From: Escherichia coli
GTDB lineage: Bacteria > Pseudomonadota > Gammaproteobacteria > Enterobacterales > Enterobacteriaceae
Length of the DNA: 64,000 nt
NCBI RefSeq assembly: GCF_030013595.1
Contig: NZ_CP122768.1
Direction: 5' to 3' (one strand)
The translations under genes were made by a program, and so were the position numbers. This document shows, one piece after another, positions 25,020 to 50,797 of the stretch (its first letter is position 1; every line of letters begins with the position of its first letter). The notes below the pieces were generated by a model, which worked only from the letters and a program-made list of their open reading frames with translations, was not told the origin of the DNA and ran no database searches.

Positions 25020-25020
25020 T

Positions 25021-31082: not shown

Positions 31083-31185
31083 ATGACGAAAGTGGGTTGT
31101 TTATAAGAATTGAATAAACAACCCATCATTTTAATGTACTCTGAATCCTCTCATTCTTAGTGAAATATTGTTTTTAGAACACGTA

Positions 31186-32152: not shown

Positions 32153-32403
32153 ATGCTGGATGGATATTACGTATCGTCTGATAAGGGGTATCCAGATGTG
32201 GCTTGCAAAGAATGCCTGAGCATGTCTGTTATCGCAGAGGCGATCCTGCGCAAGCAGCCAGCTGAGTACCTGCATCTAACGCAGACCAGCTGCTCTTAAA
32301 CCGACTTCATTATCAAACATTATTTATTTTTAGCGACTACTTACTACATCTAGTGGTAGCTGAAATAAAATAACCTGCATATAGTGATTTTCGTCGTTTA
32401 AGT

Positions 32404-32500
32404 GCTTGACAATTCTGCACATGGCATTTAACGGTGTCTGTGGTAAACTATCCACAGAATAGTCAACAGTGTTGGATTGTGGATAATCGCCGGATATATG
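32404..32500 (+). promoter_or_regulatory. Putative promoter with palindromic operators upstream of small gene
   Basis: TTGACA at 32404; perfect palindrome tctgtggtaaactatccacaga; second inverted repeat gttggattgtggataatc; strong RBS GGGAGG. Confidence 0.4.
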
Positions 32501-32510
32501 GGGAGGATAA

Positions 32511-32705
32511 ATGGCTAAATATGAACTTCGACCACTGTCAGATAGCCGTAAGGCTGACATTGCTCGCAGTGCATTAGCACAAAATAGAGCCCCTGCTAAG
32601 CCTACTGCTTCAATGTCCTCTGGCTCTGCTTCAATACAGAGATCACGAGATACTGCGCGAGTAATGATGGATCGTGCATTCAGGACAGTTGTAGCCAAAG
32701 GATAA
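32511..32705 (+). CDS. Small hypothetical protein (64 aa)
   Basis: Strong RBS gggaggataaATG; followed by a clean terminator. Confidence 0.45.
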   Translation: MAKYELRPLSDSRKADIARSALAQNRAPAKPTASMSSGSASIQRSRDTARVMMDRAFRTVVAKG

Positions 32706-32722
32706 TTTTACTTTAATTGATT

Positions 32723-32749
32723 AAAGCGCCTTTTTCTGGCGCTTTTTTA
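32723..32749 (+). terminator. Rho-independent terminator
   Basis: agcgcctttttctggcgct hairpin plus T-run. Confidence 0.6.
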
Positions 32750-32764
32750 TTGCGGAAAAACCAA

Positions 32765-33445
32765 ATGGAAAAGCTCTGGGTTTTTACTCAATTAGTTACA
32801 GGGAAAGATGACACATCTGGCTTTTTGGCTTACGCGCTCTATAAGCACGACAAAAATGAATATGCAGAGAAGTTGCGTAGTAGTGGCGAATATACAGAAG
32901 AAGATATTAACGCCCAACTGAAGATCTTTCATGAGCAGACAGTTAACTCGCCAGGCCGAATTGAGTCTTACAAAGAAAAAGCAGAAGCCATCGTCACAAA
33001 CTTAACAGACCAGATAGATGCTGATATCCGGCTTGAGTACGATGCACAGTTAGCCGGTGCTAACTTGCAGGATGTTGAAATAGAACGGCTGAAAGCAGAA
33101 ATACAGGCTATGAAAGCATCACGTGAGAGCGAGCTAAGGAAGGCTGGAGAGGATGCTATTCTCAATTTTCATCGCATGGTTGAAATCACCCAGGCACGCA
33201 AACGTGGGCGTGTTTCCCGCTCGTTAGGATGGTACTGGAATGGGTTTGCCAGCATTTTCGCCACAATAACCTTCGCTGTCATTGTCTATGGTATTTGTAC
33301 TTGGGCATTGCCACAAAAATCCAGAGACGACATTGTGGATGGAGCGTTTAAAAATCTACAGGGATCGTTATTCCAACAGCCAAACATTCAATTTAATAAA
33401 GACAAAAACGAGAACGCTCAGCAACCTAACACAAGTGCCGAATAG
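32765..33445 (+). CDS. Coiled-coil protein with C-terminal transmembrane helix
   Basis: Start at MEKLWVFTQ after the terminator; hydrophobic segment GFASIFATITFAVIVYGICTW; track ORF begins at 32717 inside the terminator. Confidence 0.45.
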   Translation: MEKLWVFTQLVTGKDDTSGFLAYALYKHDKNEYAEKLRSSGEYTEEDINAQLKIFHEQTVNSPGRIESYKEKAEAIVTNLTDQIDADIRLEYDAQLAGANLQDVEIERLKAEIQAMKASRESELRKAGEDAILNFHRMVEITQARKRGRVSRSLGWYWNGFASIFATITFAVIVYGICTWALPQKSRDDIVDGAFKNLQGSLFQQPNIQFNKDKNENAQQPNTSAE

Positions 33446-33622
33446 TATCCCCGCGATGCTCCGGTAGCCTCACCATCTCGCGGGGCTTGCCTTTCCAGGT
33501 GATTGACATGATTACCAGTTTCTGAATACCGTTTTCAACGGTACTGAGCACCCAGGTGACGGTGAAACGTGAAGAATATCGCACCTTATTAAAGGTGCAG
33601 CCCCTCAAAAGAGGGGCTATTC

Positions 33623-33856
33623 TCACTTCTGCAGTATCTCGCCAATACCTGCCAGGTTCTCATCCATCTTGTCACCGTTTTCGATAAGGATGGAGTTGAG
33701 CCGATTCAGTTGCATAGCAATTTCAAGTTTGATTAAAGTATCTACCGATACATCAGTTTCTTTTGCTAACTTAGTAAGAGCCTCAGCCCGATTGGCTAAA
33801 TTAAAATCATCGAACTCATAACGACTTCTGCACGGCTGGTTGCCTAACGTACCCAT
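33623..33856 (-). CDS. Hypothetical small protein (77 aa)
   Basis: Minus-strand ORF with GAGGAA RBS; hairpin gcccctcaaaagaggggc just downstream of its stop. Confidence 0.4.
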   Translation of the reverse strand: MGTLGNQPCRSRYEFDDFNLANRAEALTKLAKETDVSVDTLIKLEIAMQLNRLNSILIENGDKMDENLAGIGEILQK

Positions 33857-34097
33857 AGTGATTCCTCATGATATAAAGACCCAACAATATAAATTACCAG
33901 GCACATCATAAGATAGGGGCCCAGCCCATATTTTCAAATATTTGCAAGTATCACCGTTCAGTCTAAAAACTTGGATGGTTGTTTCACGAGTCATAACAAA
34001 ACCCTGACTCGGCGGGTTTTCTTTTTATAGAACTCTGCGATGCGACAACGAATAATAAATTGTGCAAATAGTGCTGTTTTTATTATTCGAGGTGGAT

Positions 34098-34730
34098 ATG
34101 AGATCATTCTATGAGGACTGGCCTGAAACGTTTGTCACCCGACTTGACATGCTGCGGGCGCTGGATAACCGGGGGGCAACCCGGAGACTCTACACAAAAC
34201 GTACAGGGGCGATTTACAACGCGCTGGCAGACGAGGTTCGTGAGGCTGTGACTGGATTCAATACCAGTGAACTCGACTTAGGACCACTCTACCGGTATTA
34301 CAAACGTGGAGGAGAGAGCGACGCGCTGGCAGACACACTGATCGCACTGGCGCCGACTGTGTGCAGGCGCGTAATGATTTCCCCTGACGTATATACAATA
34401 CCGTACCTGTTTTTTGCGCTGTTGATAGCGCGAGGAGAGGACGACGATGCACGTGATTTTTTCAATATGATGATGCGGCCACTAATCGTGGCGTACCGGT
34501 TCAAACAACTGGCGCGTTATCTGGGAACAAAGGGCGGAGGGAGGCCACAGCACAGGCTAAAAGACGAGGCATTACAGATTGCAGAGGTTTTTTTCACAAA
34601 TAATCCCCACGCACGGGTTAGTGCGGCGGTGGCACGTATTAACGAAATTCTCGTAAAAAAATATGCTGACGTTCCGGCGGAGTCAACTATTAGAAAATGG
34701 TTAACCCATGTTTATGGAAATGAAAAATAA
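34098..34730 (+). CDS. Hypothetical protein (210 aa)
   Basis: RBS gaggtggatATG; track ORF extends upstream from a GTG at 34062. Confidence 0.45.
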   Translation: MRSFYEDWPETFVTRLDMLRALDNRGATRRLYTKRTGAIYNALADEVREAVTGFNTSELDLGPLYRYYKRGGESDALADTLIALAPTVCRRVMISPDVYTIPYLFFALLIARGEDDDARDFFNMMMRPLIVAYRFKQLARYLGTKGGGRPQHRLKDEALQIAEVFFTNNPHARVSAAVARINEILVKKYADVPAESTIRKWLTHVYGNEK

Positions 34731-34877
34731 TAACCATAAACCGTTTTTTCCGGGAATAAACCGTTTAATCAAATTCACGCGGTGAATATAATTGCTCATT
34801 ATTCCCCCATTGCATTTGATGTTATGACATACGATAAAAAATACTGTATATATACAGGGTTTCTGTCAGGGGGAAAT

Positions 34878-35057
34878 ATGAACACACACGAGGCGATCAG
34901 CAAATTACCGGATACGTGCCGGGCTGTAATCAAACGAGAAGAGGGGCGCGTAGTGATTGTACGCGTCCTCAGCGACGACGAGCGGATTGCCAGCCTGCTG
35001 GCGTTTCTCGAGTTGGCAGAAACAGCTGGATATACTATTACACCCCCTGACGCGTAA
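34878..35057 (+). CDS. Hypothetical small protein (59 aa)
   Basis: Internal ATG with GGGGGA RBS. Confidence 0.3.
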   Translation: MNTHEAISKLPDTCRAVIKREEGRVVIVRVLSDDERIASLLAFLELAETAGYTITPPDA

Positions 35058-35134
35058 TACGCGGTATAATACTGGTGCTGGTCTGAACACCCGGCACCAT
35101 TTTCTGAGCACTGCCGCGCCACCTGGAGTTAAAC

Positions 35135-35731
35135 ATGGCGCAGCATTCATTTATCAGGGTATCCGGCGGTTCGCTAATACCCGCGACACCAGACACGCAA
35201 CGCTGGTTGACTGAACGAGTCAAACCAGATGCTGTTGTGTATGCAGATTTCAAACAGGCGCGTAATCCCGCGTTTCATCGTAAATTTTTCTCACTTCTAA
35301 ACCTGGGCTTTGATTACTGGCATCCGTCCGGAGGGGCTATTTCTCCTGCGGAGCGCGAACTGGTCCATGGCTACGTTAAGTTACTGGCGTATTACGGTGG
35401 ACACGGTGATGTCATGGCAGAGCTGGCTGATCAGTATCTTCTCGATGAGTCGGAAAAGCGCGCGGGGAATATCAGTGCGGTGAAGTCGTTCGAGGCGTTT
35501 CGCGCCTGGGCGATTATGGAAGCTGGGTTTTATGACGTTCATCAGATGCCGGATGGCAGTTTGATGCGCGTACCTCGTTCAATCTCGTTTGCTGCGATGG
35601 ACGATCTTGAGTTCGGTCAACTGTATTCAGCCGTTTTAGATGTGCTGTGGAATTATATTTTGTTCCGCACGTTTGCCTCTCAGGAGGCCGCTGAAAATGC
35701 TGCCGCGCAGCTGCTGGATTACACATCATGA
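35135..35731 (+). CDS. Lambdoid nin-region protein (DUF1367-like, tentative)
   Basis: 198-aa ORF with GGAG RBS just upstream of the YbcO-like and Q-like genes. Confidence 0.45.
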   Translation: MAQHSFIRVSGGSLIPATPDTQRWLTERVKPDAVVYADFKQARNPAFHRKFFSLLNLGFDYWHPSGGAISPAERELVHGYVKLLAYYGGHGDVMAELADQYLLDESEKRAGNISAVKSFEAFRAWAIMEAGFYDVHQMPDGSLMRVPRSISFAAMDDLEFGQLYSAVLDVLWNYILFRTFASQEAAENAAAQLLDYTS

Positions 35732-36021
35732 AAAAAATCGACCTGAGAAAAGCTGCATGCGGTCGCGCTTGTACTGTGCGTATCCCCGGTGTGTGTAATC
35801 ACAATCCGGAAACCAGTGTACTGGCTCACTACCGCCTCGCCGGAACGTGCGGCACAGCCATCAAACCTCACGATATGCAGGGCGCTATCGCCTGCAGTGC
35901 GTGTCACGATGCCATCGACGGGCGTACAAAAACGGATTACGAGCACGACTCATTGTTGTTGATGCACGCTGAAGGAGTTTTCAGAACACTGGCTATCTGG
36001 CGCGATGAGGAGTTTATCTGA
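35728..36021 (+). CDS. YbcO-like Cys-rich nin-region protein (putative nuclease)
   Basis: 97 aa with CxxxC ... CSxCHDAIDGRT pattern; resembles DLP12 YbcO as I recall. Confidence 0.45.
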   Translation: MKKIDLRKAACGRACTVRIPGVCNHNPETSVLAHYRLAGTCGTAIKPHDMQGAIACSACHDAIDGRTKTDYEHDSLLLMHAEGVFRTLAIWRDEEFI

Positions 36022-36692
36022 TGAGTAACGAGTATTTATTGGAATATACCCGCATAAAACTGCGTGCTGCATTACGGGATTTGTCTGGTGGTTCTAAGGG
36101 GCAACTGGAAGCATTGTGTGAGCACCCGCCAGCAGATAAAAACGCATACCCACGCAAACATATTCATCGTGTGCAACTGGAGGACCGGACCGTTGATGCT
36201 CTGGTTCCGCCAGTTTATGCCCTGGAAAGTTTCAGCAGACGTCGCCCCGCGCCGCCGATGAATGATTTTGAATTCGCTGATTCATCGTGGCGCCGTGCCG
36301 TGAACGCGCTCGACGTTAGCCAGCAGGCGTGGTTGCGCTATTGCTACGGTGGTAACCTGGCGTTCAAACACCAAACAGCTATTTGTGAGGCTGTCTGGAG
36401 TCGCTATAAAGGAAACATCTCTGCGTCAACTCAGAGAAAAGTAGTCAAGCGCCTGCTTTCGTTGGTGTGGTTGTCCGTGCAGGCGGTCGCAGCAGCAAAT
36501 AAACGCGAGGATTTTAAGGAGATGGCCGGATCTGCGCTAGCTGGAATGTTGTCTGTTTCTCGTTCCACCTGGTGCGAAACATACTCCCCGCACTGGGTAG
36601 GAATGAAAGAGGCGGTGAGAGCACTTGATGAAGTGGCACTTTTTGCAACTTTGCATCATTATCAGAACCATTTAGACGACGTTTGCGTATAA
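36021..36692 (+). CDS. Late-gene antiterminator Q-like protein
   Basis: 223-aa ORF directly upstream of a promoter/terminator pair and the lysis cassette. Confidence 0.5.
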   Translation: MSNEYLLEYTRIKLRAALRDLSGGSKGQLEALCEHPPADKNAYPRKHIHRVQLEDRTVDALVPPVYALESFSRRRPAPPMNDFEFADSSWRRAVNALDVSQQAWLRYCYGGNLAFKHQTAICEAVWSRYKGNISASTQRKVVKRLLSLVWLSVQAVAAANKREDFKEMAGSALAGMLSVSRSTWCETYSPHWVGMKEAVRALDEVALFATLHHYQNHLDDVCV

Positions 36693-36760
36693 TGCTTGCA
36701 AAACCGAACAAAATAGGCCATATTTAACGCTAATTTGGTATGTTGCCAAATTTCTAAGAA

Positions 36761-36784
36761 CCTCGCCACGGCGGGGTTTTGTCG
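36761..36784 (+). terminator. tR'-like terminator in late-operon leader
   Basis: cctcgccacggcgggg hairpin plus ttttgtcgttt between the Q-like gene and holin. Confidence 0.5.
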
Positions 36785-36804
36785 TTTCTGAATCAGGAAA
36801 AATC

Positions 36805-37188
36805 ATGTCTGAACCTCTAACCGCTGGCGTTGCTGCTGGCTCGGCGGGGGTGACGTTTGCTGCGTTATTTCCTGAGGCAACACCTGCAGTGATGATCTGT
36901 GCGCTGGCAGGCGCAGCTCTCTATGTGTTGTCATCCGGGCAGCATCGATTCTGGAAGCAGGTTATTTTCGCACTCATTTCGTTTGTTGGCGGTGTGTATT
37001 GCGCTGAGACAGCATCAGCCATCATTACCGGTATTCTGAATGCGGTGCTGAGTCACCTGAACCCTCCCGTAACAGTAAAAGTCTCTCCCGCCATTGGTGC
37101 ACTGGTTGCATCAGTAATCAGCGTTACATCACTGTTGCGGATCATGTCACAAGCTCGTTTATGGAAATCAGATAAGGGGATGAAATAA
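36805..37188 (+). CDS. Putative holin
   Basis: 127-aa membrane protein with several hydrophobic segments, first late gene before endolysin. Confidence 0.5.
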   Translation: MSEPLTAGVAAGSAGVTFAALFPEATPAVMICALAGAALYVLSSGQHRFWKQVIFALISFVGGVYCAETASAIITGILNAVLSHLNPPVTVKVSPAIGALVASVISVTSLLRIMSQARLWKSDKGMK

Positions 37189-37460
37189 TGACCCTGCACT
37201 CTGTCCTCATCAATGCCAATGCAATTATCTGTCTGATGCTGGCACTGCGGTTGATGTTTTTTCAAAAAACAGGCCGCTATCGTTTTTTTATCTCACTAAC
37301 TGCTTACCTGGCGATTCTGTCTGCTGCGTGGATAGCCCTACGAATTTTTTACGGGAAATATACGCAGGTTGATCCCGCAGAGTTCTTTCTCAACCTCACC
37401 ATCTGTATTGCTGTCTGGCGGGCACGAGGAAATATTTCAAAAATAACAGGAGACAGGTAA
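37188..37460 (+). CDS. Putative holin/antiholin-like membrane protein
   Basis: 90-aa hydrophobic ORF between holin and endolysin. Confidence 0.4.
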   Translation: MTLHSVLINANAIICLMLALRLMFFQKTGRYRFFISLTAYLAILSAAWIALRIFYGKYTQVDPAEFFLNLTICIAVWRARGNISKITGDR

Positions 37461-37939
37461 TGACCGATCCTAAATGGCTAATTGAGGCACGAAAAAATCT
37501 CGGCATCCGGGAAATGAAAGGGAAGCAACATGCTGCAGAAATTGTGCAGTACTGGAAAGATATCAAACGCGGCGGTATTAAGGATGACGAAACACCATGG
37601 TGCGCCGCCTTCACCGGAGCAATGCTGGAACGTGTTGGTATTCGCTCAACGCGTTTTGAGTCTGCGAATTCTTATCTCGATTGGGGTAATGAACTGAAGG
37701 AGCCCGCCTATGGATGCATTGCTATTCTGTCTCGGTCTGGCGGTGGCCACGTTGGTTTTGTTGTCGGGAAAAATGCCGCCGGGGATTTAATGATTTTGGG
37801 TGGCAACCAGGCAGACGCAGTGAATATCAAAGCGTTTCCGAGCTCACGCGTTACCGGCTATCGCTGGCCAACAGGTCAAACGGATGTTCCACAATCACTT
37901 CCATTGGTGAATGCTGAGAAATCTATCTCAGAAGCGTAG
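37460..37939 (+). CDS. Putative endolysin (Cys/His peptidase-type cell-wall hydrolase)
   Basis: 159 aa; ETPWCAAF and GGHVGFVVG motifs suggest CHAP/NlpC-like peptidase; position in lysis cassette. Confidence 0.5.
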   Translation: MTDPKWLIEARKNLGIREMKGKQHAAEIVQYWKDIKRGGIKDDETPWCAAFTGAMLERVGIRSTRFESANSYLDWGNELKEPAYGCIAILSRSGGGHVGFVVGKNAAGDLMILGGNQADAVNIKAFPSSRVTGYRWPTGQTDVPQSLPLVNAEKSISEA

Positions 37940-37946
37940 GTAAAAT

Positions 37947-38138
37947 GTGAAAAAACTCCTCTTAGCTGTCGCGTTCTTCACGCTGGCAGGCTGCACACAT
38001 TCGACATACACCGAAGCGACTCGCGCTGACGGCAGCAGCATTAAACACGTGACGATCGCGCCGGGTACGAAGATTACTACTGCGAACGGTGGTTGTATTG
38101 ATTCAACCGGTGTCGTAACGGCTTGTCAGGCAAAGTGA
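37947..38138 (+). CDS. Small lipoprotein (possible outer-membrane spanin component)
   Basis: MKKLLLAVAFFTLAGC lipobox signal; 63 aa; end of lysis cassette. Confidence 0.45.
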   Translation: MKKLLLAVAFFTLAGCTHSTYTEATRADGSSIKHVTIAPGTKITTANGGCIDSTGVVTACQAK

Positions 38139-38239
38139 TTGTAACTTGCTGTTTTCGGTATTAAGTACCTTGAATTAGGTTTACGAGTTGGCATTATAGA
38201 AAAACTATATGGTTCACTAATGTGACATAAGGAAATATT

Positions 38240-38488
38240 ATGCCTAAGTTAAAACTTGTTAAGACATTGCTATTGCCAGGTAATAATAAGTATGAGATTT
38301 ATGCAAGAAATGAATATAGCAACGTAGAACAAATTATTCACTATAAACTGCGCTCTTGTAAGAACGAGCAAGGCCAGGATGGAATGTCTGAGGCGCAATG
38401 GGTTATTTATGATCCATTGTTTCCATTACCAGATGACCGCAATTATGCAAGTGTATCAAATATAGACGACTATCTGGTCGATTGCTAA
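38240..38488 (+). CDS. Hypothetical moron protein (82 aa)
   Basis: AT-rich; RBS aaggaa; terminator directly downstream. Confidence 0.4.
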   Translation: MPKLKLVKTLLLPGNNKYEIYARNEYSNVEQIIHYKLRSCKNEQGQDGMSEAQWVIYDPLFPLPDDRNYASVSNIDDYLVDC

Positions 38489-38496
38489 GTGAAATC

Positions 38497-38518
38497 AAAC
38501 CGCCTATGGGCGGTTTTT
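38497..38518. terminator. Bidirectional terminator between convergent moron genes
   Basis: aaaccgcctatgggcggttt with A/T runs on both sides. Confidence 0.55.
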
Positions 38519-38561
38519 ATTGCCATCACCATGGGAAGACATATAGTAATGGCATTTATCA

Positions 38562-39032
38562 TTATTCTTTGACGATAATGCTCGACTCTGCTGCTTCGCT
38601 ATCTTTCTTGGCAGAAAGCTCAGCTTTCAACTTCGAAAGGAGAGATGCTTCCATTGCATTAAGTATTGATTCGGTTTCAGAGTTAAATCCAGTGAATTTG
38701 ATAATGCGTTTCGTAACTTTTCCTTTTTCAGCGCTTGCTGCCAGACCGACATCGGTAGCGCTAACTTTCGCGCCTACGTCGCCCTTCAGCGAGTTGCCGT
38801 AATATTCTTCTATTTCGACAGTTTCAGAGATTAAAGTGCGTCTGGCGATGGCAAGTTCTTGCTCGATTTTTGAATAGGAATGTAGAGCCTCAGCTGTAAT
38901 CTCCTCGCTCTCTACTGGGAATGTAGGATTTCTGGTATCGCGAACACTAATATCTCTAACGTCAAAACCAATAATATTCGAGGTAGCAGTTGTTGCTGCG
39001 AGTTTGAGTATTGTCAAAACCAGTTCATTCAT
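38562..39032 (-). CDS. Hypothetical moron protein (156 aa)
   Basis: Minus-strand ORF with GGAGG RBS, convergent with 38240..38488. Confidence 0.4.
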   Translation of the reverse strand: MNELVLTILKLAATTATSNIIGFDVRDISVRDTRNPTFPVESEEITAEALHSYSKIEQELAIARRTLISETVEIEEYYGNSLKGDVGAKVSATDVGLAASAEKGKVTKRIIKFTGFNSETESILNAMEASLLSKLKAELSAKKDSEAAESSIIVKE

Positions 39033-39632
39033 TTTTAGCCTCCAGAGAATTGATTTAAGAATAACAAGTTAATGAAAAATTCCAAATGGCAAACCGGGAC
39101 TGGGCTTGAGCTTCAGAAGCGGTTCCTGTCCGAGTACGTCAAATCATGTGTATCACCGAAAGAATGGTGTGACGCGCAGGGACTGAGCTTCGCAACAGCT
39201 CGCCGACGTATAAAAAACAACTGCGCAATGTGCCAAAGAGCTGGTGGCTGATGAAAGAGACGTTTTACTTAAACGAGAGGCCGCCTTTTTTGTTTCAAGG
39301 CGGCACACATTCAACAGATTAAGGTAACCGATTTGACCATTTAGTTGCGCGCCAGTTGTTCTGAACCATAATCACCTGAAGTATCTCATCTGAAGGCTCC
39401 GCTTCGCGGCGTAAACATTCTCTTAAAGTTGAACAATGTAGATAAGAGGAGCTCGCACGAGTTTGATAGACCTGATGCGAGCCCCCGATTCCTGTCCTGA
39501 AAGGGAGATAGCCCCCCTGGTCGCGGGTCCTTTCCGAAATCCAAAACACCGAGGGTCGGTAGACGCGCAAAAACTCACTCGTTTTTAGTATTTTTTCATT
39601 TTGGGTATTTCCGGTTCCGGTGAGGATTTTTA

Positions 39633-40199
39633 ATGGCAAGTCAGGCTGAGGTCGCAGCACATTTACTGCTATCTGATCGTCGTCTGCGCGATCTTGCAAA
39701 ACTTCCGGGAGCTCCAGTCCCCCAAGGACGTGGCGATTGGGAACTTGACGCATGGCGCCATTTTTATATTCGTTATCTCCGGAGCAATAGACGCGACACA
39801 ACTAGTAATGACGAACCGGAAGCGGGGGACAATTCTCCCGAAAAAAATCGCGAGCAGTGGTTGAAAAATGAGGAACGGCAGGAGCGAATCCTGATGGCTC
39901 GCGTGAAACGCCGCATTCTTGCTAAACGCTACGCGCCAATTGAATTAATCAGCGTAGCTGTATCTCGCGTCGCAGTTGAATTACGTACCCGTGTCGAATC
40001 GTGGCCACCACGGTTAAAAAAGGTGTGGCCGGAAATGCCGCAGGAGGCGAGCAGTGTATTACGAGAGGAGCTGGCAATAGCCCTGAATGAACTGGCAGAC
40101 ATACGAATCGACTTCAGCGATTACGATGTCAGCGATATCGAACGCGATCTCGACAGGGTTGAATCCCTTGCGCGTGACGATACCGATGACGGGGGTTGA
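39633..40199 (+). CDS. Terminase small subunit (Nu1-like)
   Basis: 188-aa ORF immediately upstream of and overlapping the large terminase. Confidence 0.5.
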   Translation: MASQAEVAAHLLLSDRRLRDLAKLPGAPVPQGRGDWELDAWRHFYIRYLRSNRRDTTSNDEPEAGDNSPEKNREQWLKNEERQERILMARVKRRILAKRYAPIELISVAVSRVAVELRTRVESWPPRLKKVWPEMPQEASSVLREELAIALNELADIRIDFSDYDVSDIERDLDRVESLARDDTDDGG

Positions 40200-42048
40200 G
40201 TGGGCTGATAAACATTTTTATCTTCCCGAAGGCTCAAGCCATATTGCTGGCCACTGGACGACTCAGCCGGTCCAGGTAGTGATGTTAAATATGATGACGA
40301 ACGACGCGATAAAAATCGTGTCTGTTCGCAAATCAGCTCGTCTCGGTTATACAAAAATACTCGTCGCGGCGCTGCTCTATTTCGCTGAGCACAAAAAACG
40401 TAGTGCCGTGGTCTATCAGCCTATCGATGACGAATCGGATGGATTTGTCGCCGACGAGGTTGACCCCGCTATCGCCGAAATGCCGGTGATTCAGAAAATT
40501 TTCCCCGACTGGGATAAAAGCAACGAGCGTAACAATCTCCAGCGTAAAGAGATGAACGGGGCGATTATCGATTTTCGTGGCGCGAGTGCACCAGGAAATT
40601 TCCGGCGACTGACGAAACAGGTTGTCGAGGGTGACGAAGTCGACGGCTGGCCGCTGGAGGTTGCAAAAAAAGGCAAGGGCGAGGGCTCGCCCATCGAGCT
40701 GGCGCTCGTTCGAATTAAAGGTGCAGCGTACCCAAAAGCAATTTTCGGTTCGACGCCGACCGTTACCGGCAAAAGCCATATAGAAATGTTGGAAGACGCG
40801 GCTGATCTGACGTTTCGTTTTTACCTGAAGTGTCCGCATTGTGGCGAGGAGCAGGTCCTGGTATTTGGTTTCGACGGTATCGAATACGGTCTCAAGTGGG
40901 ATGACAGCCTGCAGACCAACGAGTCGAAATCGTCGTCCGCGTATTACCAGTGCTGCCACTGCCCGGAGCATTTTTACTATCGCGATCTCGAAAAAATGGA
41001 GCTCGCGGGGCGCTGGATAGCAGAGGACTGCACCTAGACGCGGGACGGCATTCATTTTTTTGATCACGACGGTGGTGTCGTTCGCGCGCCGAAACACGCG
41101 GCGATCGTGATAAACGCCCTGTATTCACTGAATCTCGACGGCTGGGGCGAGATTGTCAGCGAGTGGCTGAAAGCGAAAGGCGACCCACTCAAAGAAAAAA
41201 CGTTTCATAACACGACGCTCGGCGAGCTCTGGAGCGACGTGGCCAGCGAGCAGCTGGAGCACGATATTCTCGTTAATCGCCGGGAAAAATACGCCAGCCA
41301 GGTTCCTGACGGTGTTGTTTATATAACCGGCGGCATCGACTCTCAGACGTCCGGGCGCTACGAGTGTTACGTGTGGGGCTGGGGATCTGAGGAGGAGTGT
41401 TGGCTGATTGATAAAACAATCGTCCTCGGTCGCTACGACGAGGAGGACACGCTGCAGCGCGTCGACGGAGTGATTCGTAAACAATACCAGCGCAGCGACG
41501 GGACCACAATCGGCGTCAGTCGTTGGGCGTGGGATACCGGTGGTATAGACGCGCAGGTCGTTTATAACCGCTCGCTCAAACTCGGTCCGCTGTGGGTCAT
41601 TCCGATCAAAGGCGCGAGCTCATACGGCCAGCCGGTCGTAAATATGCCGCGTACCCGTAACGCGAATAAAGTTTATTTATCGTTAATCGGTACTGATACG
41701 GCAAAAGATTTGCTCGCGATGCGTCTGCCGCTGGAACCCGACCCTAAATCGGCGACACCGGGCGCAATTCATTTTCCCAACGACGATGAAATATTCGGCA
41801 CGACAGAGGCAAAACAGCTCGTCTCCGAAGTTCTGATCCCAAAACTCATTAACGGTCGCGTCGTTTATCGCTGGGACAATCAGGGCCGGCGAAATGAAGC
41901 GCTCGACTGCTGGGTGTACGGACTGGCGGCGCTGCGTATCAGTAAAATTCGTTTTCAGCTCAATCTCGAGACGCTCGCTGAGCAACGGAAAAAATCACAA
42001 AACAAACTGTCTCTCGAGGAGATGGCCAGAATGCTCGGAGGGAGCTAA
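40186..42048 (+). pseudogene. Terminase large subunit (lambda gpA-like) with in-frame amber codon at 41035..41037
   Basis: VEWADKHFYLPE..., CPHCGEEQ, ...TRDG..., GIDSQ, WGWG, NEALDC all align to lambda gpA as I recall it; TAG sits where gpA has Trp (IW-TRDG); reading continues in same frame; start ambiguous (40087 or 40186). Confidence 0.75.
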
Positions 42049-42281
42049 TGACGTCGCGCGAGGTTTTAACAGAACGACTGCTGGAAGCGGAAATCGCTCT
42101 GCACAAATTATTAACGGGTAAATCGACCGTGTCGCTGTCTCACGGCGATTCAGCAGGAAATAACCGGAGCTATCAATACTCGCAGGCGAGTATTGAGCAG
42201 CTCCGAACGTACATTATCGAGCTGAAATCACAGCTCGGTCTGAGTACGGGACGCCGTCGGCCCGTGGGAGTTCGATTATGA
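42048..42281 (+). CDS. Head-tail joining protein (lambda gpW-like)
   Basis: 77 aa, pattern similar to lambda W; between terminase and portal. Confidence 0.5.
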   Translation: MTSREVLTERLLEAEIALHKLLTGKSTVSLSHGDSAGNNRSYQYSQASIEQLRTYIIELKSQLGLSTGRRRPVGVRL

Positions 42282-43852
42282 CTGCTCCGCAGCAGCTGCT
42301 CGGGCCTGACGGTAAAACGCCACTACGCCGTTACGCGGGGTATAACGGCGGCGGTCCCGGTTTCGGTGGCCAGCTGATTGACTGGAACGCACCACAGCAG
42401 AGCGCCGACGCAGCACTGTTGCCGAATTTTTATCGCGGTAACGCGCGAGCAGACGATCTCGTTCGCAATAACGGCGTCGCGTCGAACGCCGTGCAACTGC
42501 ACCAGGATCATATCGTCGGCAATCTGTTTAAGTTGAGTTATCGCCCTAACTGGCGTTACCTCGGCATATCTCGCGAGGACGCCAGGGCGCTGGCGCGTGA
42601 CGTCGAGGTAGCGTGGACTGAATACGCCGAGGACCCTCACTGCACGATTGATATCGAGCGGAAACGGACGTTCACAATGATGATCCGCGAGGGCGTGGCT
42701 ACTCACGCTTTCAACGGTGAAACCTGCGTACAACCAGTCTGGGAGAGTAGTGCCGGCAGCGTTTTTCGGACGCGATTCAAAATGGTCTCACCGAAACGGA
42801 TTCGAAATCCGGGTTACGCAGCTGACACTCAATTTCGCCGCGCCGGTGTTGATATCGATAAAAACGGGGCCGCGGTCGGGTACTGGATAGCCGAGGATAC
42901 TTACCCTCTCGGCGGAGTCGGTAAATGCCGGCGTATCCCAGCACAGCTCAGCAGCGGCAGACACGCATTCATCCACATATTCGAGCCGCTCGAGGACGGA
43001 CAGACCCGCGGGGACAATATTTTTTACAGCGTCATGGAGCGCCTGAAAATGCTCGATACGTTGCAGCAAACACAGCTGCAGAGCGCCATCGTGAAAGCGA
43101 TGTACGCCGCGACAATCGAATCAGAGCTCGATAGCCAGCAGGCGTTTGAATATATCGCCGGCGCGGGTACTGATATCGATTCGAACCCGCTGAATTCGTT
43201 TATTCAGAGTTACGTGACGTACTACAACGGCGCAAATATCAAGCTCGGTGGCGTGAAAGTTCCCCACCTGCATCCCGGCGACAAACTCAGTTTACAGACC
43301 GCTCAGAATGCTGATGCTGGTTTTAGTTCACTGGAAAAATCACTCCTGCGTTACGTTGCAGCTGGCGTTGGCGCGTCATACGAAGAACTGAGCCGGGACT
43401 ACAGCCAGGTCAGTTACTCCAGCGCCCGGGCCAGCGCTAACGTCAGCTGGCGATTTTTCATGGGGCGTCGACGTTTTATCGCCGCGCGACAGGCGTCGCT
43501 GATGTTCTGCTGTTGGTTTGAAGAGGCGCTGGCACGCGGGATTATCACTCTGCCTAGCTCCGCGGTTCGGTCGTTTTATGAGGCGCGGAACTCCTGGACG
43601 AACGCGCTCTGGATCGGTGCTGGCCGAATGGCGATCGACGGACTGAAAGAAGTTCAGGAGAGCGCAATGCGAATCACGACTGGCCTCAGCACGTATCAGA
43701 ATGAACTGGCGCTGCAGGGGCAGGACTACGAAGAGGTTATGGAGCAACAGGAATACGAAATTCAGCGCCGGCGCGAAATGGGGTTGAGCGAGCCGTCCTG
43801 GTCTGTCTCTCATCCTTCAAATACCAACGATAACGGCTGGGGAGGTAACTGA
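42278..43852 (+). CDS. Portal protein (lambda gpB family)
   Basis: 524-aa ORF after terminase/W; lambda-type head gene order. Confidence 0.75.
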   Translation: MTAPQQLLGPDGKTPLRRYAGYNGGGPGFGGQLIDWNAPQQSADAALLPNFYRGNARADDLVRNNGVASNAVQLHQDHIVGNLFKLSYRPNWRYLGISREDARALARDVEVAWTEYAEDPHCTIDIERKRTFTMMIREGVATHAFNGETCVQPVWESSAGSVFRTRFKMVSPKRIRNPGYAADTQFRRAGVDIDKNGAAVGYWIAEDTYPLGGVGKCRRIPAQLSSGRHAFIHIFEPLEDGQTRGDNIFYSVMERLKMLDTLQQTQLQSAIVKAMYAATIESELDSQQAFEYIAGAGTDIDSNPLNSFIQSYVTYYNGANIKLGGVKVPHLHPGDKLSLQTAQNADAGFSSLEKSLLRYVAAGVGASYEELSRDYSQVSYSSARASANVSWRFFMGRRRFIAARQASLMFCCWFEEALARGIITLPSSAVRSFYEARNSWTNALWIGAGRMAIDGLKEVQESAMRITTGLSTYQNELALQGQDYEEVMEQQEYEIQRRREMGLSEPSWSVSHPSNTNDNGWGGN

Positions 43853-45159
43853 TGCCGTGGAATAATTTTCCGCACCTCGCCGCCCGGGCGTTCAATCAAC
43901 CGCTGTTGCTGGAGCCCACTTACGCGCGTGTATTTTTTTTGGCGCTGAGCGATCGGTTCGGTGCCAGACGACTGATTGATACAGCGTCCGGAGAGGTAAT
44001 GAGCAGCGACGAAATGAACGCGCTCGCGATGGGGTGGGACAGCAGCGAGCGATCGCGTCAGAAGTCGTACCGCGTGGAGCGTGGTATAGCCGTTCTGCCT
44101 GTTACCGGGACGCTGGTTCATAAATTGGGTTATATCAATCCGGTCAGTGGGATGAGCGGTTACGACGGAATCGCAAAACGTCTGCAGCAGGCGATTGCTG
44201 ATCCCGATGTTAAGGGGGTCTTGCTGGATATTGACTCCCCTGGCGGTGAGGTCGCCGGCGCGTTTGATACCGCTGATCTAATCGCCCGGGCGCGAGAGCA
44301 AAAACCGGTGTGGGCGCTGGCCAGCGATACGGCCTGCAGCGCCGCATATTTGCTGGCGTCAGCGTGTTCGCGCCGGCTGATAACGCAGACCGGCACGGTT
44401 GGTTCAATCGGTGTTCTGATGGCCCACCGCTGTGTCGAAAAGGCGCTGGAGATTGCCGGCGTTGACGTGACACTGATTTACGCCGGCGCGCACAAAGTCG
44501 ACGGTAACCCGTATTCCCAGCTGCCTGACGACGTTCGCGACGAATTCCAGCTGAGTATTAACAGCACGCGCGAGCAGTTCGCGCAAAAAGTCTCGGATTA
44601 TACCGGTCTGAAAAAATCCAGGGTGCTGGCCACGGAGGCCGCAGTATTTACCGGCGCAGACGCGATCAAATCTGGTCTCGCTGATCAACTCGTTAATTAC
44701 GCAGACGCTATCGCAGTGATGGCCGACGCACTGAAACCAAAAATGGAGCGATTTATGCCAGGTACAGAAACCACGGCGGAGACCACGACAACAGAACAAA
44801 CCGCGGACACGTCCACGGTCGCGCCGGTTGTGTTAAACACGGAGCAGATTCGCACGGACGCCGCATCGGGTGAACTGGCGCGCGTAATGGCCATTATCAA
44901 CTGCCCCGAAGCTGTCGGTCGCGAAGCACAGGCAAAAGCGCTCGCCGGCGTCCCCGGGATGACCGTCGAGCAGGCGCAGGTGGTCCTCGCGGCAGCACCG
45001 CAAACGGCGCAGGCGCGGACAGAAACGGCGCTCGATACACTAATGAGCACTGAATCACCGGCAACGATTCAGGATGCCGGCAGCACTACGGCAACAGGAA
45101 CAACCGCAAACGTCTCGATGCTCGTCGCGGCAGGGCGTTCAATTTTAGGGGATGAATAA
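43852..45159 (+). CDS. Head maturation protease / scaffold (lambda gpC-like, S49 family)
   Basis: 435-aa ORF after portal with ClpP/SppA-like region (GVLLDIDSPGGEVAG...). Confidence 0.65.
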   Translation: MPWNNFPHLAARAFNQPLLLEPTYARVFFLALSDRFGARRLIDTASGEVMSSDEMNALAMGWDSSERSRQKSYRVERGIAVLPVTGTLVHKLGYINPVSGMSGYDGIAKRLQQAIADPDVKGVLLDIDSPGGEVAGAFDTADLIARAREQKPVWALASDTACSAAYLLASACSRRLITQTGTVGSIGVLMAHRCVEKALEIAGVDVTLIYAGAHKVDGNPYSQLPDDVRDEFQLSINSTREQFAQKVSDYTGLKKSRVLATEAAVFTGADAIKSGLADQLVNYADAIAVMADALKPKMERFMPGTETTAETTTTEQTADTSTVAPVVLNTEQIRTDAASGELARVMAIINCPEAVGREAQAKALAGVPGMTVEQAQVVLAAAPQTAQARTETALDTLMSTESPATIQDAGSTTATGTTANVSMLVAAGRSILGDE

Positions 45160-45488
45160 TGACCACAGAAACGTATAGCCCAGATGATTTTATTCTGGGA
45201 CCCGATCTCGTTGTGACGACCGTCGGTCATTTTCAGGGCGGGATCAACGTACCCCGGCTGACGCCGGTCATGGTGGATGCTACCGCGGGGTCGTTTAAAG
45301 TGTGGGACGGCTCAGTCGGTAAAGCTGTCGGCCTTACGGCCACTGCGGTCAATACGGGCTCCAGTACTGTAGACTGCTCGTACTATAAATCAGGATCGTT
45401 CCGTTATACGGCGATTAACTGGGGGACGGTTACCGACGTAGCTAAACGCAAATCAGCGTTTGCTGGTACGCCGATCAGCGTCAGCTGA
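45159..45488 (+). CDS. Head decoration protein (gpD-like)
   Basis: 109-aa ORF between protease and major capsid gene; terminator hairpin follows at ~45509-45533. Confidence 0.5.
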   Translation: MTTETYSPDDFILGPDLVVTTVGHFQGGINVPRLTPVMVDATAGSFKVWDGSVGKAVGLTATAVNTGSSTVDCSYYKSGSFRYTAINWGTVTDVAKRKSAFAGTPISVS

Positions 45489-45547
45489 TAGCCCCAAGAA
45501 TTCAAAACAAGCCGCCTACGGGCGGTTTTTTTATACAGGATATATAA

Positions 45548-46582
45548 ATGAGCGATTCGTTTACTACGTCAGAACTGATTACCGCAACGCAGCAGGTATT
45601 TAAGTTCAATCCGTTGTTTTTAAGATTGTTTTTCCGTGAGACCTATACGTTTAAGAGCGAAGAGGTTTTTCTGGATAAAATCCCGGGAAAAGTGAACATG
45701 GCCGTGTATTGCGCGCCGATGATCACCGGCAAAGTTGACCGCACTCGCGGCTATTCAACGAACCATTTCAAACCGGGTTACACGAAGCCGAAGCACACGA
45801 TCAATCCGAATATGAGCATCAAGCGCTCCGCCGGTGAGCAGATTGGCCAGCCGGAAATGCCGGTCGAACGTCGTGCAAAAATCATCATGCAGAATCTGCT
45901 CGACGAGGAGCTCAGCATCAGCCAGCTCGAAGAGTTCCAGGCAGTGCAGGCGGTTCTGTACGGTAAGTACACCGTCTCCGGCAGCAATATCGAGACCTAT
46001 GAGATCGACATGAGCCGCAGCGCGACGAATAACGTTACTCAGTCCGGTTCGACAGCCTGGTCTACGCAGGACGCGGAAACGTATGACCCGAGCGACGATA
46101 TCGAATCCTACGCGGACCTCGCCTCCGGTGCAGTCAACGTCATCATTATGGACGGTAAAGCCTGGAAGCAGCTTAAACGCTTTAAAAAATTCTGGACGGC
46201 GCTGGATACGCGTCGCGGCTCAAACAGCCAGCTCGAGATCGCGCTGAAAAACCTGGGCGACGTTGTTAGCTTTAAGGGCTATTACGGTGACACAGCGTTG
46301 TTTGTCTACAAAGGACAATACATCGATCCGGAGACAGGCACTGAAAAGCGTTATATGCCGGATAGCACGATGATTTTGGGCAACACAAAAAATCGCGGAC
46401 TCCGCACTTATGGCGCAATCCAGGACGAAGACGCTTTGAAAGAGGGTATCAGCGAGGCCACGCGCTATCCGAAAGTCTGGACCACTACCGGTGATCCGGC
46501 AGTGACGCAGACAATGACCCAATCCGCGCCAGCAATGGTGCTCACGGACGCTGATGCGTTTGTCGTCGTAAAAATCGCGTAA
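45548..46582 (+). CDS. Major capsid protein (lambda gpE-like)
   Basis: 344-aa ORF in major-capsid position; terminator hairpin after stop (~46583-46604). Confidence 0.75.
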   Translation: MSDSFTTSELITATQQVFKFNPLFLRLFFRETYTFKSEEVFLDKIPGKVNMAVYCAPMITGKVDRTRGYSTNHFKPGYTKPKHTINPNMSIKRSAGEQIGQPEMPVERRAKIIMQNLLDEELSISQLEEFQAVQAVLYGKYTVSGSNIETYEIDMSRSATNNVTQSGSTAWSTQDAETYDPSDDIESYADLASGAVNVIIMDGKAWKQLKRFKKFWTALDTRRGSNSQLEIALKNLGDVVSFKGYYGDTALFVYKGQYIDPETGTEKRYMPDSTMILGNTKNRGLRTYGAIQDEDALKEGISEATRYPKVWTTTGDPAVTQTMTQSAPAMVLTDADAFVVVKIA

Positions 46583-46616
46583 GAGCCGAAAGGCTCTTTT
46601 TTGTTAAGGAAGCAAC

Positions 46617-47030
46617 ATGAGCACAAAAACAGAATTGCTGGCGCGCATTGACGATCTGAGCGCTCAGCTCGGTCGCGAATTACCGCGCAGCGGGACTATT
46701 GCTGAACTGGAATCAATCGTCGCTGGCGCTGAGTCAGAGCTCGATATTTTGAACGAGCAATCCGGTGACGCGAGTGATGCCAACATTAATGCGAACGCAT
46801 CAGATGAAACTGATGATGACAGCGCAGAACAACCGTCAATCGCGAGCACGACGTCACAACCAGAACTGTCTCCCGCTACGCGCCGCGTTAAGCTGCGTAA
46901 CACGCTGGATGTATATCACTACGTGAACGGGCGTCGCGTTCGCGAGATTGTTGCCGCTGGCCGTGAAATTGTTGTTGATTCACCAGAGGTTGCAGACCTC
47001 ATCGCAGCTGATCACGTTTACGCTCTATGA
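46617..47030 (+). CDS. DNA packaging protein (gpFI-like)
   Basis: 137-aa acidic ORF after capsid gene. Confidence 0.45.
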   Translation: MSTKTELLARIDDLSAQLGRELPRSGTIAELESIVAGAESELDILNEQSGDASDANINANASDETDDDSAEQPSIASTTSQPELSPATRRVKLRNTLDVYHYVNGRRVREIVAAGREIVVDSPEVADLIAADHVYAL

Positions 47031-47407
47031 GCTACTACGATGACCTCCGGGCCGGCGATGAGGAGATGATTCTGGAGTGGGGACGGCCCGTTAAATTACG
47101 CGGTAAAACCGACCCCATTATCGCTATTTTCAACGAGCCTTACGCGCGCGTTGACGTTCCTCACGCTGGTTTTATTACCGGTACAGTAACGAGCCTGACA
47201 GCGCTCTCAGACGACGTCGCCGGCATTGTTGCGCGTGACGTCGTCCGGGTTCCAAAGCAGCGCAGCATCGAACCTGACGGCTCTGTTACCTGGTCTGGCT
47301 GGACCGATTACGTGGTTAAAGAGTCTCAGCCAGACGGTGTCGGGCTCACGAATATTTTTTTAGAGCCTCATACGTCCAGCGAAAACAGCGAGTATTCAAA
47401 ATACTAA
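47027..47407 (+). CDS. Head-tail joining protein (gpFII-like)
   Basis: 126-aa ORF overlapping FI stop. Confidence 0.45.
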   Translation: MSYYDDLRAGDEEMILEWGRPVKLRGKTDPIIAIFNEPYARVDVPHAGFITGTVTSLTALSDDVAGIVARDVVRVPKQRSIEPDGSVTWSGWTDYVVKESQPDGVGLTNIFLEPHTSSENSEYSKY

Positions 47408-47437
47408 GTGGGACCGCGGTCCTACTAAGGGGGAACC

Positions 47438-48118
47438 GTGGCCGATTTACGTAGTAACGCGCAGATGTTCGATATCGATGTTTCGGCGCTGGAGCAGCTC
47501 AGAGTCGAAATCAGCGCGACGCAACATCAAATGTTAATGGCATACAACAGGGCGCTGAACCGAACTGCAAAACATATGCACCGAATTTCAGCAGGAATGA
47601 TTTTGACTGCACTGGCAGCTAAAAATCATAAGGCCGTAGATAAACGAATCAAACCGTTCATTAAGCGCCGCGATTTTACAAAAGAAGGGGCAGGAGATCT
47701 GAGTAGCGTAAAACTCTGGTACGGCCTGAACGATTTCCGTGTATCTGAGCTAAAGGGGCGATTACAAAATCCCAGGAAGCAGAAGCAGCCTCGCAATCCA
47801 GAGACCGGTCAATTTTTGAAAACAAAAAAAGGCGCTCGAGGGGCAACTTTTACACCCAAAAGTGCAGGGCTGGCGATGCTGAGCTGGCCCGATTCATTCG
47901 TAGCGAAACGCTACGGTGCGAAAAGTGTCTGGATTCGACTGGCTCGCGGAGGAATCGAAGAGGCTCGCGTACCGGTGCACGAAGCGCTGGAGGATGCTAT
48001 CGATGATTATATTTTTGAAAACATTGGCACCGTGTTCATGGGTTTTTTTGAACAGGACTTGCGTGGTCGCGTGAAAGGTAATGTCCACGTAGACCCAAAA
48101 ACAGGGAAACGATTATGA
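47438..48118 (+). CDS. Hypothetical virion morphogenesis / tail completion protein
   Basis: 226-aa ORF between head and baseplate genes. Confidence 0.35.
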   Translation: MADLRSNAQMFDIDVSALEQLRVEISATQHQMLMAYNRALNRTAKHMHRISAGMILTALAAKNHKAVDKRIKPFIKRRDFTKEGAGDLSSVKLWYGLNDFRVSELKGRLQNPRKQKQPRNPETGQFLKTKKGARGATFTPKSAGLAMLSWPDSFVAKRYGAKSVWIRLARGGIEEARVPVHEALEDAIDDYIFENIGTVFMGFFEQDLRGRVKGNVHVDPKTGKRL

Positions 48119-48651
48119 GCGGACTGGATGCATTTGACGAATATCTTGATCGCGTTAAAGGCGCGGTTTTACAAATACCGTTCATCAAAACATTCGGCAT
48201 TTATCCAGAAATTCCGGCAGGATTTGAAACGCCAGCTCTGTTCCTGGAAATCAGCAACTGGTCACAGAGTGACGAATCGGTTCCAGGCTCAATTCAGTCA
48301 GTCGAGCTGTCGTGTAATTTGTATTTGCTGCGTGAGTTTGCGGCTGATCAGTACGGACTGAAATCGCAGAATGCAGCGCTCTATATGACGAGCTGGATTA
48401 ATGGGCGAATGTTTGGTGCCGGAACTAAACCAGCAAAATTCAGCGACGCGGAACCGTGTGACTGGATTAAAAACGGGCAGTCAGTCGGTTCGCATTCAGT
48501 TCAGTGCGTGTCGTTCACGCAGGTTGTAGGCGTTGGTCCAGATATTTTCGATTATCCCTCACAGGGAACCCTGAAAAATATATACGTCGGAATAGCGCCA
48601 GATATCGGCGCAGAACATGAGGGCGACTACTATGGCCCAATCGGACGATGA
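48115..48651 (+). CDS. Hypothetical virion morphogenesis protein
   Basis: 178-aa ORF, translationally coupled to neighbours. Confidence 0.35.
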   Translation: MSGLDAFDEYLDRVKGAVLQIPFIKTFGIYPEIPAGFETPALFLEISNWSQSDESVPGSIQSVELSCNLYLLREFAADQYGLKSQNAALYMTSWINGRMFGAGTKPAKFSDAEPCDWIKNGQSVGSHSVQCVSFTQVVGVGPDIFDYPSQGTLKNIYVGIAPDIGAEHEGDYYGPIGR

Positions 48652-49534
48652 ATATGCCGCAGCGGAGAACGCGCGTCGGCTGCGTGACGCAGTTAAACGC
48701 GGCACGATAGCTGCAGTTAAAATGAATCCTCCCCGTTGCCGCGTCTCATTTGGCGGCGAGCACCAGTCAGGCTGGCTACAGTGGTTTACACACGCAACGT
48801 CTGAGCGCGTCGACTGGAGCGCTCCATCAGTGGGTGATCCCGTTACCGTTGTTTCTGAGGGCGGGGACACGCGGAACGGTGTAGTTATGCTCGGGTTACA
48901 CATTGACGACAAAGCTCCGCCCAGTAGTGACCCACATGATCATGTCACTGCATACTGTGACGGGGCTACGATGACGTATAACACAAAAAATCACACTCTG
49001 ACATGGCAGGGCGTACCGGACGGCGTAGTAAAAATACTCGGTGAGTCTGAAATAGAAATATTCGGACGTGCAGACGTTACTATTAATAGCGAAAACGTTG
49101 TCAATATTCACGGTGGAAAATTAATTAACGCAGACGCTGATATTATTAATGTGACAGCGACAGATACAATTAACGCACATGCTGATTTAGTGAACGTTAT
49201 AGCAACGAGTTCTGTTAGTGTTACTGCTGCGAACAGAATATCGCTGACAGCTCAAACAATCAGTGCGTGGGCTCCGGGTGGGATAACACTAGCTGGTCCA
49301 ACTCATATTACCGAGACATTAGTAGTAGATAAATTAGCGACATTCCATAACGATATTTCTGTCACTGGAGATAACGGTGGAACAGGTAATATCACAACTC
49401 GCGGTAGTGTGTTAGCAGGGCAAGAGGTGCAGGATCGACAAGGCACAATAGCTGAAGTCCGCACAACGTATAACGGACACACTCATATATGTCCGGACGG
49501 GGAAACACAACAACCGAACCAACCAATGGCGTAA
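48617..49534 (+). CDS. Baseplate spike protein (P2 gpV-like)
   Basis: 305 aa; first gene of a V-W-J-I-H order. Confidence 0.6.
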   Translation: MRATTMAQSDDEYAAAENARRLRDAVKRGTIAAVKMNPPRCRVSFGGEHQSGWLQWFTHATSERVDWSAPSVGDPVTVVSEGGDTRNGVVMLGLHIDDKAPPSSDPHDHVTAYCDGATMTYNTKNHTLTWQGVPDGVVKILGESEIEIFGRADVTINSENVVNIHGGKLINADADIINVTATDTINAHADLVNVIATSSVSVTAANRISLTAQTISAWAPGGITLAGPTHITETLVVDKLATFHNDISVTGDNGGTGNITTRGSVLAGQEVQDRQGTIAEVRTTYNGHTHICPDGETQQPNQPMA

Positions 49535-49878
49535 ATATGCTTGGAATGGACCGTAACACTGGTAAACCTTTATCCGGGGTTGACCACATTTGTCAGTCTA
49601 TCGTTGATATTTTAACGACCCCGCTGGGAACACGTGTAATGCTGCCGGAATATGGAAGCAAATTATTTGACCTCGTTGATAATCCCACTGATCCGTCGCT
49701 TGCTATGAGAATAATGATGGAAAGTGCAGGAGCAATAGCACGCTGGGAACCACGCGTCAGAATTGACAGAATAAATGTGTTAGCAGTGGATATCGGGAAA
49801 ATAACAATATTAATTATCGCAACAGATATCGAAACACAACAGCGATTAGAGTTTAATAATATGGAGCTGATATTTTGA
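49489..49878 (+). CDS. Baseplate protein (P2 gpW-like)
   Basis: 129-aa ORF after V. Confidence 0.55.
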   Translation: MSGRGNTTTEPTNGVNMLGMDRNTGKPLSGVDHICQSIVDILTTPLGTRVMLPEYGSKLFDLVDNPTDPSLAMRIMMESAGAIARWEPRVRIDRINVLAVDIGKITILIIATDIETQQRLEFNNMELIF

Positions 49879-50795: not shown

Positions 50796-50797
50796 CT

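Follow-up and report, generated by a model that had tools for sequence, protein, structure and literature searches.

The prophage integrated at leuZ in this Escherichia coli chromosome carries an amber codon inside terL, the gene for the large terminase subunit, and the case is very probably one of an inherited nonsense mutation, of Dcm-type origin, that is predicted to abolish DNA packaging. The window, meaning the whole stretch of 64,000 nucleotides that was analysed, follows E. coli gene order on the chromosomal side (fliD/fliC, uvrC, pgsA, glyW-cysT-leuZ, yecA, tyrP), and the coordinates of the features discussed here are collected in Table 1.

Table 1. Features of the leuZ prophage and its terminase region (window coordinates unless another sequence is named)
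Feature	Coordinates	Strand	Basis or remark
Prophage, about 45.9 kb, at tRNA-Leu (leuZ)	14597..60499		126-bp direct repeats 14597-14722 and 60374-60499
terS, intact, 188 aa	39633..40199	+	PHROG 57 small subunit, E 2e-39; length as in vB_EcoM-705R4
terL, lambda gpA family, interrupted	40174..42048	+	gpA match, Pfam, PHROG 15
N-terminal fragment with complete ATPase domain	40174..41034	+	287 aa (start GTG 40174) or 316 aa (start ATG 40087); Pfam GpA_ATPase
Altered Dcm site, CCTAG in the window against CCTGG in every relative read	41033..41037		Comparison with relatives
In-frame amber TAG, ancestral TGG (Trp)	41035..41037	+	Translation, comparison with relatives
Predicted untranslated C-terminal remnant with nuclease domain and C-terminus	41038..42048	+	Pfam GpA_nuclease
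gpW-like gene (42048-42281) and portal gene (42278-43852), both intact	42048..43852	+	Gene comparison
ISVsa5 insertion in terL of the closest complete genomes	NZ_CM149870.1, L001 3649-4972; window equivalent about 40721-40731

The interrupted gene, its family, and its surroundings

The amber codon itself is a matter of direct observation. On the plus strand the codons run GAG GAC TGC ACC TAG ACG CGG GAC GGC, the open reading frames 40087..41037 and 41107..42048 share a common frame, and the whole of 40087-42048 translates as a 653-codon conceptual product with one internal stop. The preliminary description had reported a TAG at 41035-41037 splitting the large terminase, with both open reading frames in the same frame, aligned colinearly to lambda gpA and interrupted where a single-base change had replaced a Trp codon (TGG), and all of these points hold. 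The longest possible terL frame opens at ATG 40087, while GTG 40174 is the start chosen by PGAP in relatives and results in a 26-nt overlap with terS, as in lambda Nu1/A; for these two reasons GTG 40174 is the likely true start. Only this form, of 287 aa, is on record among the N-terminal starts looked up, exact-product look-ups of the 316-aa (ATG 40087) and 283-aa (ATG 40186) forms having returned no record. The stop is codon 288 of 624 when counted from GTG 40174 and codon 317 of 653 when counted from ATG 40087.

With the stop masked, the product aligns end to end and colinearly with lambda gpA (BLAST, 275/645 identities, 43% over 645 aa, E 3e-170), and the stop falls at the W of the lambda segment GIWTRDG, BLAST placing a one-residue gap next to the masked residue. 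A Pfam scan of the Trp-restored product finds GpA_ATPase (PF05876) at residues 51-310 (E 4e-47) and GpA_nuclease (PF20454) at residues 341-622 (E 4e-63), both in 653-aa numbering, with the stop, codon 317, lying within the 30-residue linker that separates the two domains. PHROG 15, the terminase large subunit, matches the product at E 2e-240. The sequence KSARLGYT aligns with the Walker A segment KSARVGYS of lambda gpA, and GGIDSQ with its nuclease segment AGIDSQ; both segments have catalytic roles in gpA-type TerL proteins. The gene also occupies the position expected of the gpA family, in a head module ordered terS-terL-gpW-portal-protease. These matches indicate that the window gene is a lambda gpA-family TerL by descent, though not an intact member, the one uninterrupted frame for both domains being broken by the TAG. 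No PDB chain matched the intact protein at E <= 0.01, which left no solved structure in which to place the Trp.

How strongly the family holds to Trp at this position was read from an alignment of 133 sequences, comprising 131 full-length representatives, the query, and lambda gpA. The column contains W in 41 sequences, a gap in 47, R in 12 and Y in 9, besides Q, H, and A, Gln being present in at least one homologue, and many indels surround it; across the family, Trp is thus not strictly conserved.

The remainder of the prophage looks complete. Its head and packaging module is of the lambda type (terS, terL, gpW, portal, S49 protease, decoration protein, capsid, FI), with a P2-type contractile tail downstream, and the gpW-like gene has a strong Shine-Dalgarno sequence of its own, GGAGGGAG. 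When the prophage coding sequences annotated in a close relative were compared with the window, all except two were of full length, terL aside, in agreement with the preliminary description, in which the rest of the structural module looked intact; both exceptions are accessory, one being an LprI-family gene into which an IS3 element has inserted (26593-27905), the other a tail-fibre-N-terminal-domain gene whose 3' end differs between the two sequences through an indel in a C-run at 59444 (window 315 aa, relative 307 aa). Among the full-length genes are those for lysis.

Several further observations concern the mosaic make-up of the element and its flanks. The IS3-family element at 26593-27905 includes an ALIL frameshift pseudoknot at 26931-27047 (119 bits); strain HCP5S3_I2 lacks it at this site, its prophage having IS3 copies in two different positions instead. 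A T-run at 57190 differs in homopolymer length between the window and the relative. A 1.35-kb segment (38111-39457), missing from GF131 and phage 705R4, contains a 156-aa ORF on the minus strand without a PHROG match (38562-39032) and, upstream of the intact terS, a 59-aa remnant (39072-39251) of a different small-terminase family (phrog_51 N-terminus); the segment looks like a mosaic recombination junction. A 352-aa gene with a DUF262/GmrSD_N domain (30024-31082) overlaps the end of a 204-aa ORF before it (together 29413-31082) and is a candidate for anti-phage defence cargo. Outside the prophage, two bases within tRNA-Gly (glyW) differ between HCP5S3_I2 and the window (14373, 14375), the pgsA gene of HCP5S3_I2 stops one codon earlier than that of the window (14193), differences that may be real or may be base-call errors in the HCP5S3_I2 assembly, and the flagellin (fliC) allele of the window is rare, being identical in 2 complete genomes.

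Descent and origin of the stop codon

The closest relatives carry TGG where the window carries TAG. In a 1328-bp alignment block spanning the stop, the sole difference between HCP5S3_I2 and the window is position 41036, which is A in the window and G, giving TGG, in HCP5S3_I2. The draft assembly GCA_044060275.1 contains the same prophage with an uninterrupted 624-codon terL; a comparison of 21.9 kb with the window shows 14 substitutions and 2 indels, of which only 41036 lies inside terL, and its 624-aa protein (P0171), on record on 12 contigs, equals the window product except for the Trp. At somewhat greater distance, GF131, GF43, the induced phage vB_EcoM-705R4, and ST131-type loci all read CCTGG at the amber site, and TGG was found in every relative of 93-96% identity that was read there. 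Since TGG occurs both in the same prophage elsewhere and in all of these relatives, the TAG is, on this comparison, derived from TGG through one G>A change; as expected of a pseudogene made by a nonsense mutation, the closest relatives have at this position a sense codon that differs from TAG by a single base. Genes of 90-96% DNA identity to this terL occur in 442 of 5426 complete RefSeq E. coli genomes (about 8%), while a 99.9% identical terL is found, among the same complete genomes, only in the pig isolates HCP5S3_I2 and LCP30S3_I5. No GTDB species-representative genome gave a match when scanned for the exact pattern of the TAG allele, and a literature search for phage vB_EcoM-705R4 by name found only an unrelated CRISPR survey.

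The TAG allele recurs in independent deposits. It is present in all five NCBI assemblies read for it (GCA_002460785.1, GCA_002968075.1, GCA_021887745.1, GCA_036246605.1, and GCA_053639475.1), which come from different projects with unrelated accession series (NJZI, PUQC, BLCK, JAKLOW, DBKRHW); in about 7 kb compared, each shows 0-1 substitutions relative to the window. Records of the exact 287-aa N-terminal product exist for 15 contigs and of the exact 313-aa product of the downstream ORF for 56, the longest of 5.58 Mb. Position 43940, in the S49 protease gene, is T in the window and in GCA_036246605.1, and C in the other four TAG assemblies and in both TGG prophages; the T, shared by only one TAG assembly and absent from the TGG prophages, therefore arose after the amber mutation and marks a sub-lineage. 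Reproducible across independently deposited assemblies in this way, the amber allele is, to judge by these genomes, fixed in a young clonal lineage. The suggestion in the preliminary description that the mutation might be recent agrees with the 0-1 substitutions per 7 kb between the TAG assemblies and the window, set against the 14 substitutions and 2 indels per 21.9 kb between the TGG version and the window.

The sequence context of the change points to its likely source. Amber mutations in E. coli classically arise by deamination of 5-methylcytosine at Dcm sites. At the amber site the ancestral CACCTGGAC has become CACCTAGAC in the window, and opposite base 41036, on the minus strand, stands the inner C of CCAGG, the position that Dcm methylates; the ancestral motif is thus CCWGG and the change a C>T at its inner C, seen as G>A on the complementary strand. 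Deamination of 5-methylcytosine at this inner C would leave a T:G mismatch which, on escaping very-short-patch repair, would be fixed as G>A at 41036 and convert TGG (Trp) to TAG. Mismatches of this kind in the CTWGG/CCWGG context of Dcm and very-short-patch repair are normally corrected (PMC2715241). Both dcm and vsr are annotated as intact in the 99.9% identical relative strain, 23 kb past the left end of the window. A second difference from that relative follows the same pattern, with CCTGG in the relative and CCTAG in the window at 59406-59410 (base 59409); this change is synonymous (Leu), lies in the tail-fibre-N-terminal-domain gene 58540-59487, and would be a CCTGG>CCTAG event if the relative keeps the ancestral base. 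Altogether, 2 of the 34 window-versus-relative substitutions hit the inner position of a Dcm site; this 13-fold excess (Poisson P of about 0.01) comes from only two events. From this context we infer that the G>A at 41036 arose most probably through Dcm-methylcytosine deamination, although an ordinary replication-error transition, which would produce the same base change and be indistinguishable from deamination, may have been responsible instead.

Alternative readings of the interrupted gene

An inherited inactivating stop is not the only conceivable account of these observations. The stop might be leaky or suppressed, in which case enough full-length terminase could be made for relevant packaging and the prophage would be attenuated rather than dead, an outcome that we consider unlikely. 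The variability of the Trp column, at which Gln, Tyr, His, and Arg are all natural, gives this idea some substance, as a Gln-substituted protein would likely be active and low natural UAG readthrough inserting Gln could yield a little active enzyme. Amber suppressors are, however, rare among natural isolates, and the window encodes no suppressor tRNA, its only tRNAs being Gly-GCC, Cys-GCA, and Leu-TAA. The RNA downstream of the stop shows no excess of structure over shuffled controls (z = -0.07), no Rfam element lies near the stop, and the stop is conserved in no relative outside the TAG lineage among those read at the site. Programmed readthrough in particular is rejected on these grounds, namely an unconserved stop, no structure, no Rfam element, and no suppressor tRNA in the window.

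Nonsense mutation might, secondly, have been selected, loss of the terminase being favoured by the host as a step in domestication. What invites this reading is the recurrence of lesions, since three independent ones are known from terL of related prophages in which all other genes are intact: an insertion of ISVsa5, an A6>A5 frameshift, and the amber described here. In HCP5S3_I2, whose prophage is 99.9% identical, terL is cut by the ISVsa5 insertion (IS4 family) and the amber site itself is TGG; in ST131-type variants of about 94% identity, present in several assemblies (L016, L017, L019), the frameshift precedes the amber site by 35 nt (window equivalent 40996-41001) and divides terL into products of 281 and 350 aa (WP_252382127.1 / WP_252382126.1). 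Against selection stand the facts that lesions were sought in terL only, which introduces an ascertainment bias, that about 97% of the sampled homologues are intact, and that a terminase knockout would not save an induced cell, since the lysis genes are intact. Adaptive inactivation of terL is not supported, and as an explanation it is very unlikely. Two observations belong to the same genomes: ISVsa5 also splits yecU near sdiA in the NZ_CM149870.1 strain, and L018 and L019, in which numerous further genes are broken, may be error-rich assemblies.

A related and similarly improbable thought is that the truncated fragment has a function of its own, for instance in poisoning the terminase of superinfecting or co-resident cos phages, or that terL knockouts are otherwise favoured. 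The N-terminus of lambda gpA binds the small subunit, and the idea of a functional fragment derives from the retention of the ATPase domain and this small-subunit-binding part together with the loss of the nuclease and prohead-binding parts. Were terL knockouts indeed favoured, this would account for three independent lesions beside otherwise intact genomes.

The two halves might instead work as a two-piece terminase, with translation restarting at GTG 41107 to supply the nuclease half beside the ATPase half, a prospect that is extremely slim. It is true that the stop falls between the Pfam domains, that the downstream ORF opens at the first residue of the nuclease-domain match, and that a relative bears an independent frameshift in the same linker region 35 nt upstream. 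GTG 41107, however, is the only in-frame restart, and the sequence upstream of it, aaacacgcggcgatc, has no Shine-Dalgarno match; among the 150 best family representatives, 131 consist of a single chain of 570-740 aa, one intact gene was found in 58 of 60 homologues in a sample of complete genomes, and the closest relatives carry TGG, split alleles being lineage-restricted and recent. The preliminary description had named two separate genes in related functional phages as an observation that would overturn its reading, and the related prophages and the induced phage all proved to have one uninterrupted gene. A natural two-gene terminase is rejected on the strength of the same two samples of single genes (131/150 and 58/60) and the missing Shine-Dalgarno match before GTG 41107.

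Least credible, and to be given practically no weight, is a sequencing or assembly error concealing a true TGG codon and an intact terminase: the changed base does lie exactly within a Dcm motif, such motifs being a source of systematic nanopore errors with some long-read base-callers erring at methylated CCWGG, and TAG is present in none of the complete RefSeq E. coli genomes, but of the roughly 142 Dcm sites in the window just 2 are different in the relative, a poor fit to systematic error, and the five assemblies with unrelated accession series, along with the exact truncated products recorded on 15 and 56 contigs, now exclude an error that the preliminary description had left open.

Predicted consequence and known counterparts

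Under the preferred reading, an inherited nonsense mutation, translation would break off within the linker once the ATPase domain is complete, leaving the nuclease domain and the C-terminus unmade. In TerL proteins, the N-terminal part contains the translocation ATPase and the C-terminal part the endonuclease that cuts cos; the C-terminus of lambda gpA is the prohead-binding part, and in the lambda mutant Aam42 the loss of the last five codons alone leads to no prohead binding and no phage yield, a recessive defect that is rescued about 2000-fold in trans (PMC4856287). From the lambda A amber mutants we infer a packaging defect in the TAG prophage. Excision, replication, lysis of the cell, and the building of proheads and tails would be expected to continue, but cos cutting and DNA packaging would fail. 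A compatible terminase supplied in trans by a helper, or an amber suppressor, could rescue packaging. Suppressibility in a supE host is plausible, and the inserted Gln would probably be tolerated, as expected from the variable Trp column and the presence of Gln in some homologues.

The allele is a case of ordinary prophage decay, a new instance of a well-known kind, and it opens no new biological question. Its main value lies in annotation and in the prediction of prophage activity, given that prophage finders would score the 45.9-kb element as intact although packaging is most likely impossible. It also provides a clean natural example of an amber mutation at a Dcm site, the TGG ancestor and the TAG derived allele both being public, and the TGG/TAG pair offers an easy system for measuring the cost or benefit of a terminase-null prophage to its host.

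Among known systems, the mutational event most resembles the classical amber hotspots of lacI at Dcm sites, which reportedly reflect 5-methylcytosine deamination (Coulondre et al. 1978; Lieb 1991). In both, C>T at the inner position of CCWGG yields CTAGG/CCTAG and an amber codon. The lacI hotspots, however, convert CAG (Gln) in CCAGG, whereas the codon lost in the window is TGG (Trp) in CCTGG, the event being read from the opposite strand, and the former belong to a mutation assay while the latter is a natural change.

The closest counterparts in gene content are phage vB_EcoM-705R4 (ON470624) and the leuZ-region prophages of GF131, GF43, and ST131-type strains, in which the order terS-terL-gpW-portal-S49 protease-decoration-capsid-FI is likewise followed by a P2-type tail. 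Their terL genes are 94-96% identical to that of the window at the DNA level and form one uninterrupted frame of 620-624 codons with TGG, in contrast to the TAG of the window.

In phenotype, the expected parallel is with the amber mutants of lambda A, such as Aam42 and the classical Aam alleles of in vitro packaging extracts, which similarly place an amber codon in a gpA-family terminase of a cos phage with a lambda-type head. Their defect, a recessive failure of DNA maturation and packaging that complementation in trans or a suppressor relieves (PMC4856287), would be expected here too. The lambda ambers are laboratory mutants, whereas the window allele is natural and, as far as the assemblies indicate, fixed in a wild E. 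coli lineage; the window TerL, moreover, is only 43% identical to gpA, is truncated earlier, after the ATPase domain, and belongs to a phage with a P2-type contractile tail. The leuZ prophage also resembles defective E. coli prophages with point lesions in morphogenesis genes, for example the O157 Sakai pool (PMC2669165), which reportedly likewise includes complete-looking elements with a small inactivating lesion in an essential late gene that may be rescued by co-resident phages. Compared with that pool, the leuZ prophage of the window is distinguished by one identifiable lesion in an essential gene and by an intact ancestor allele that is public.
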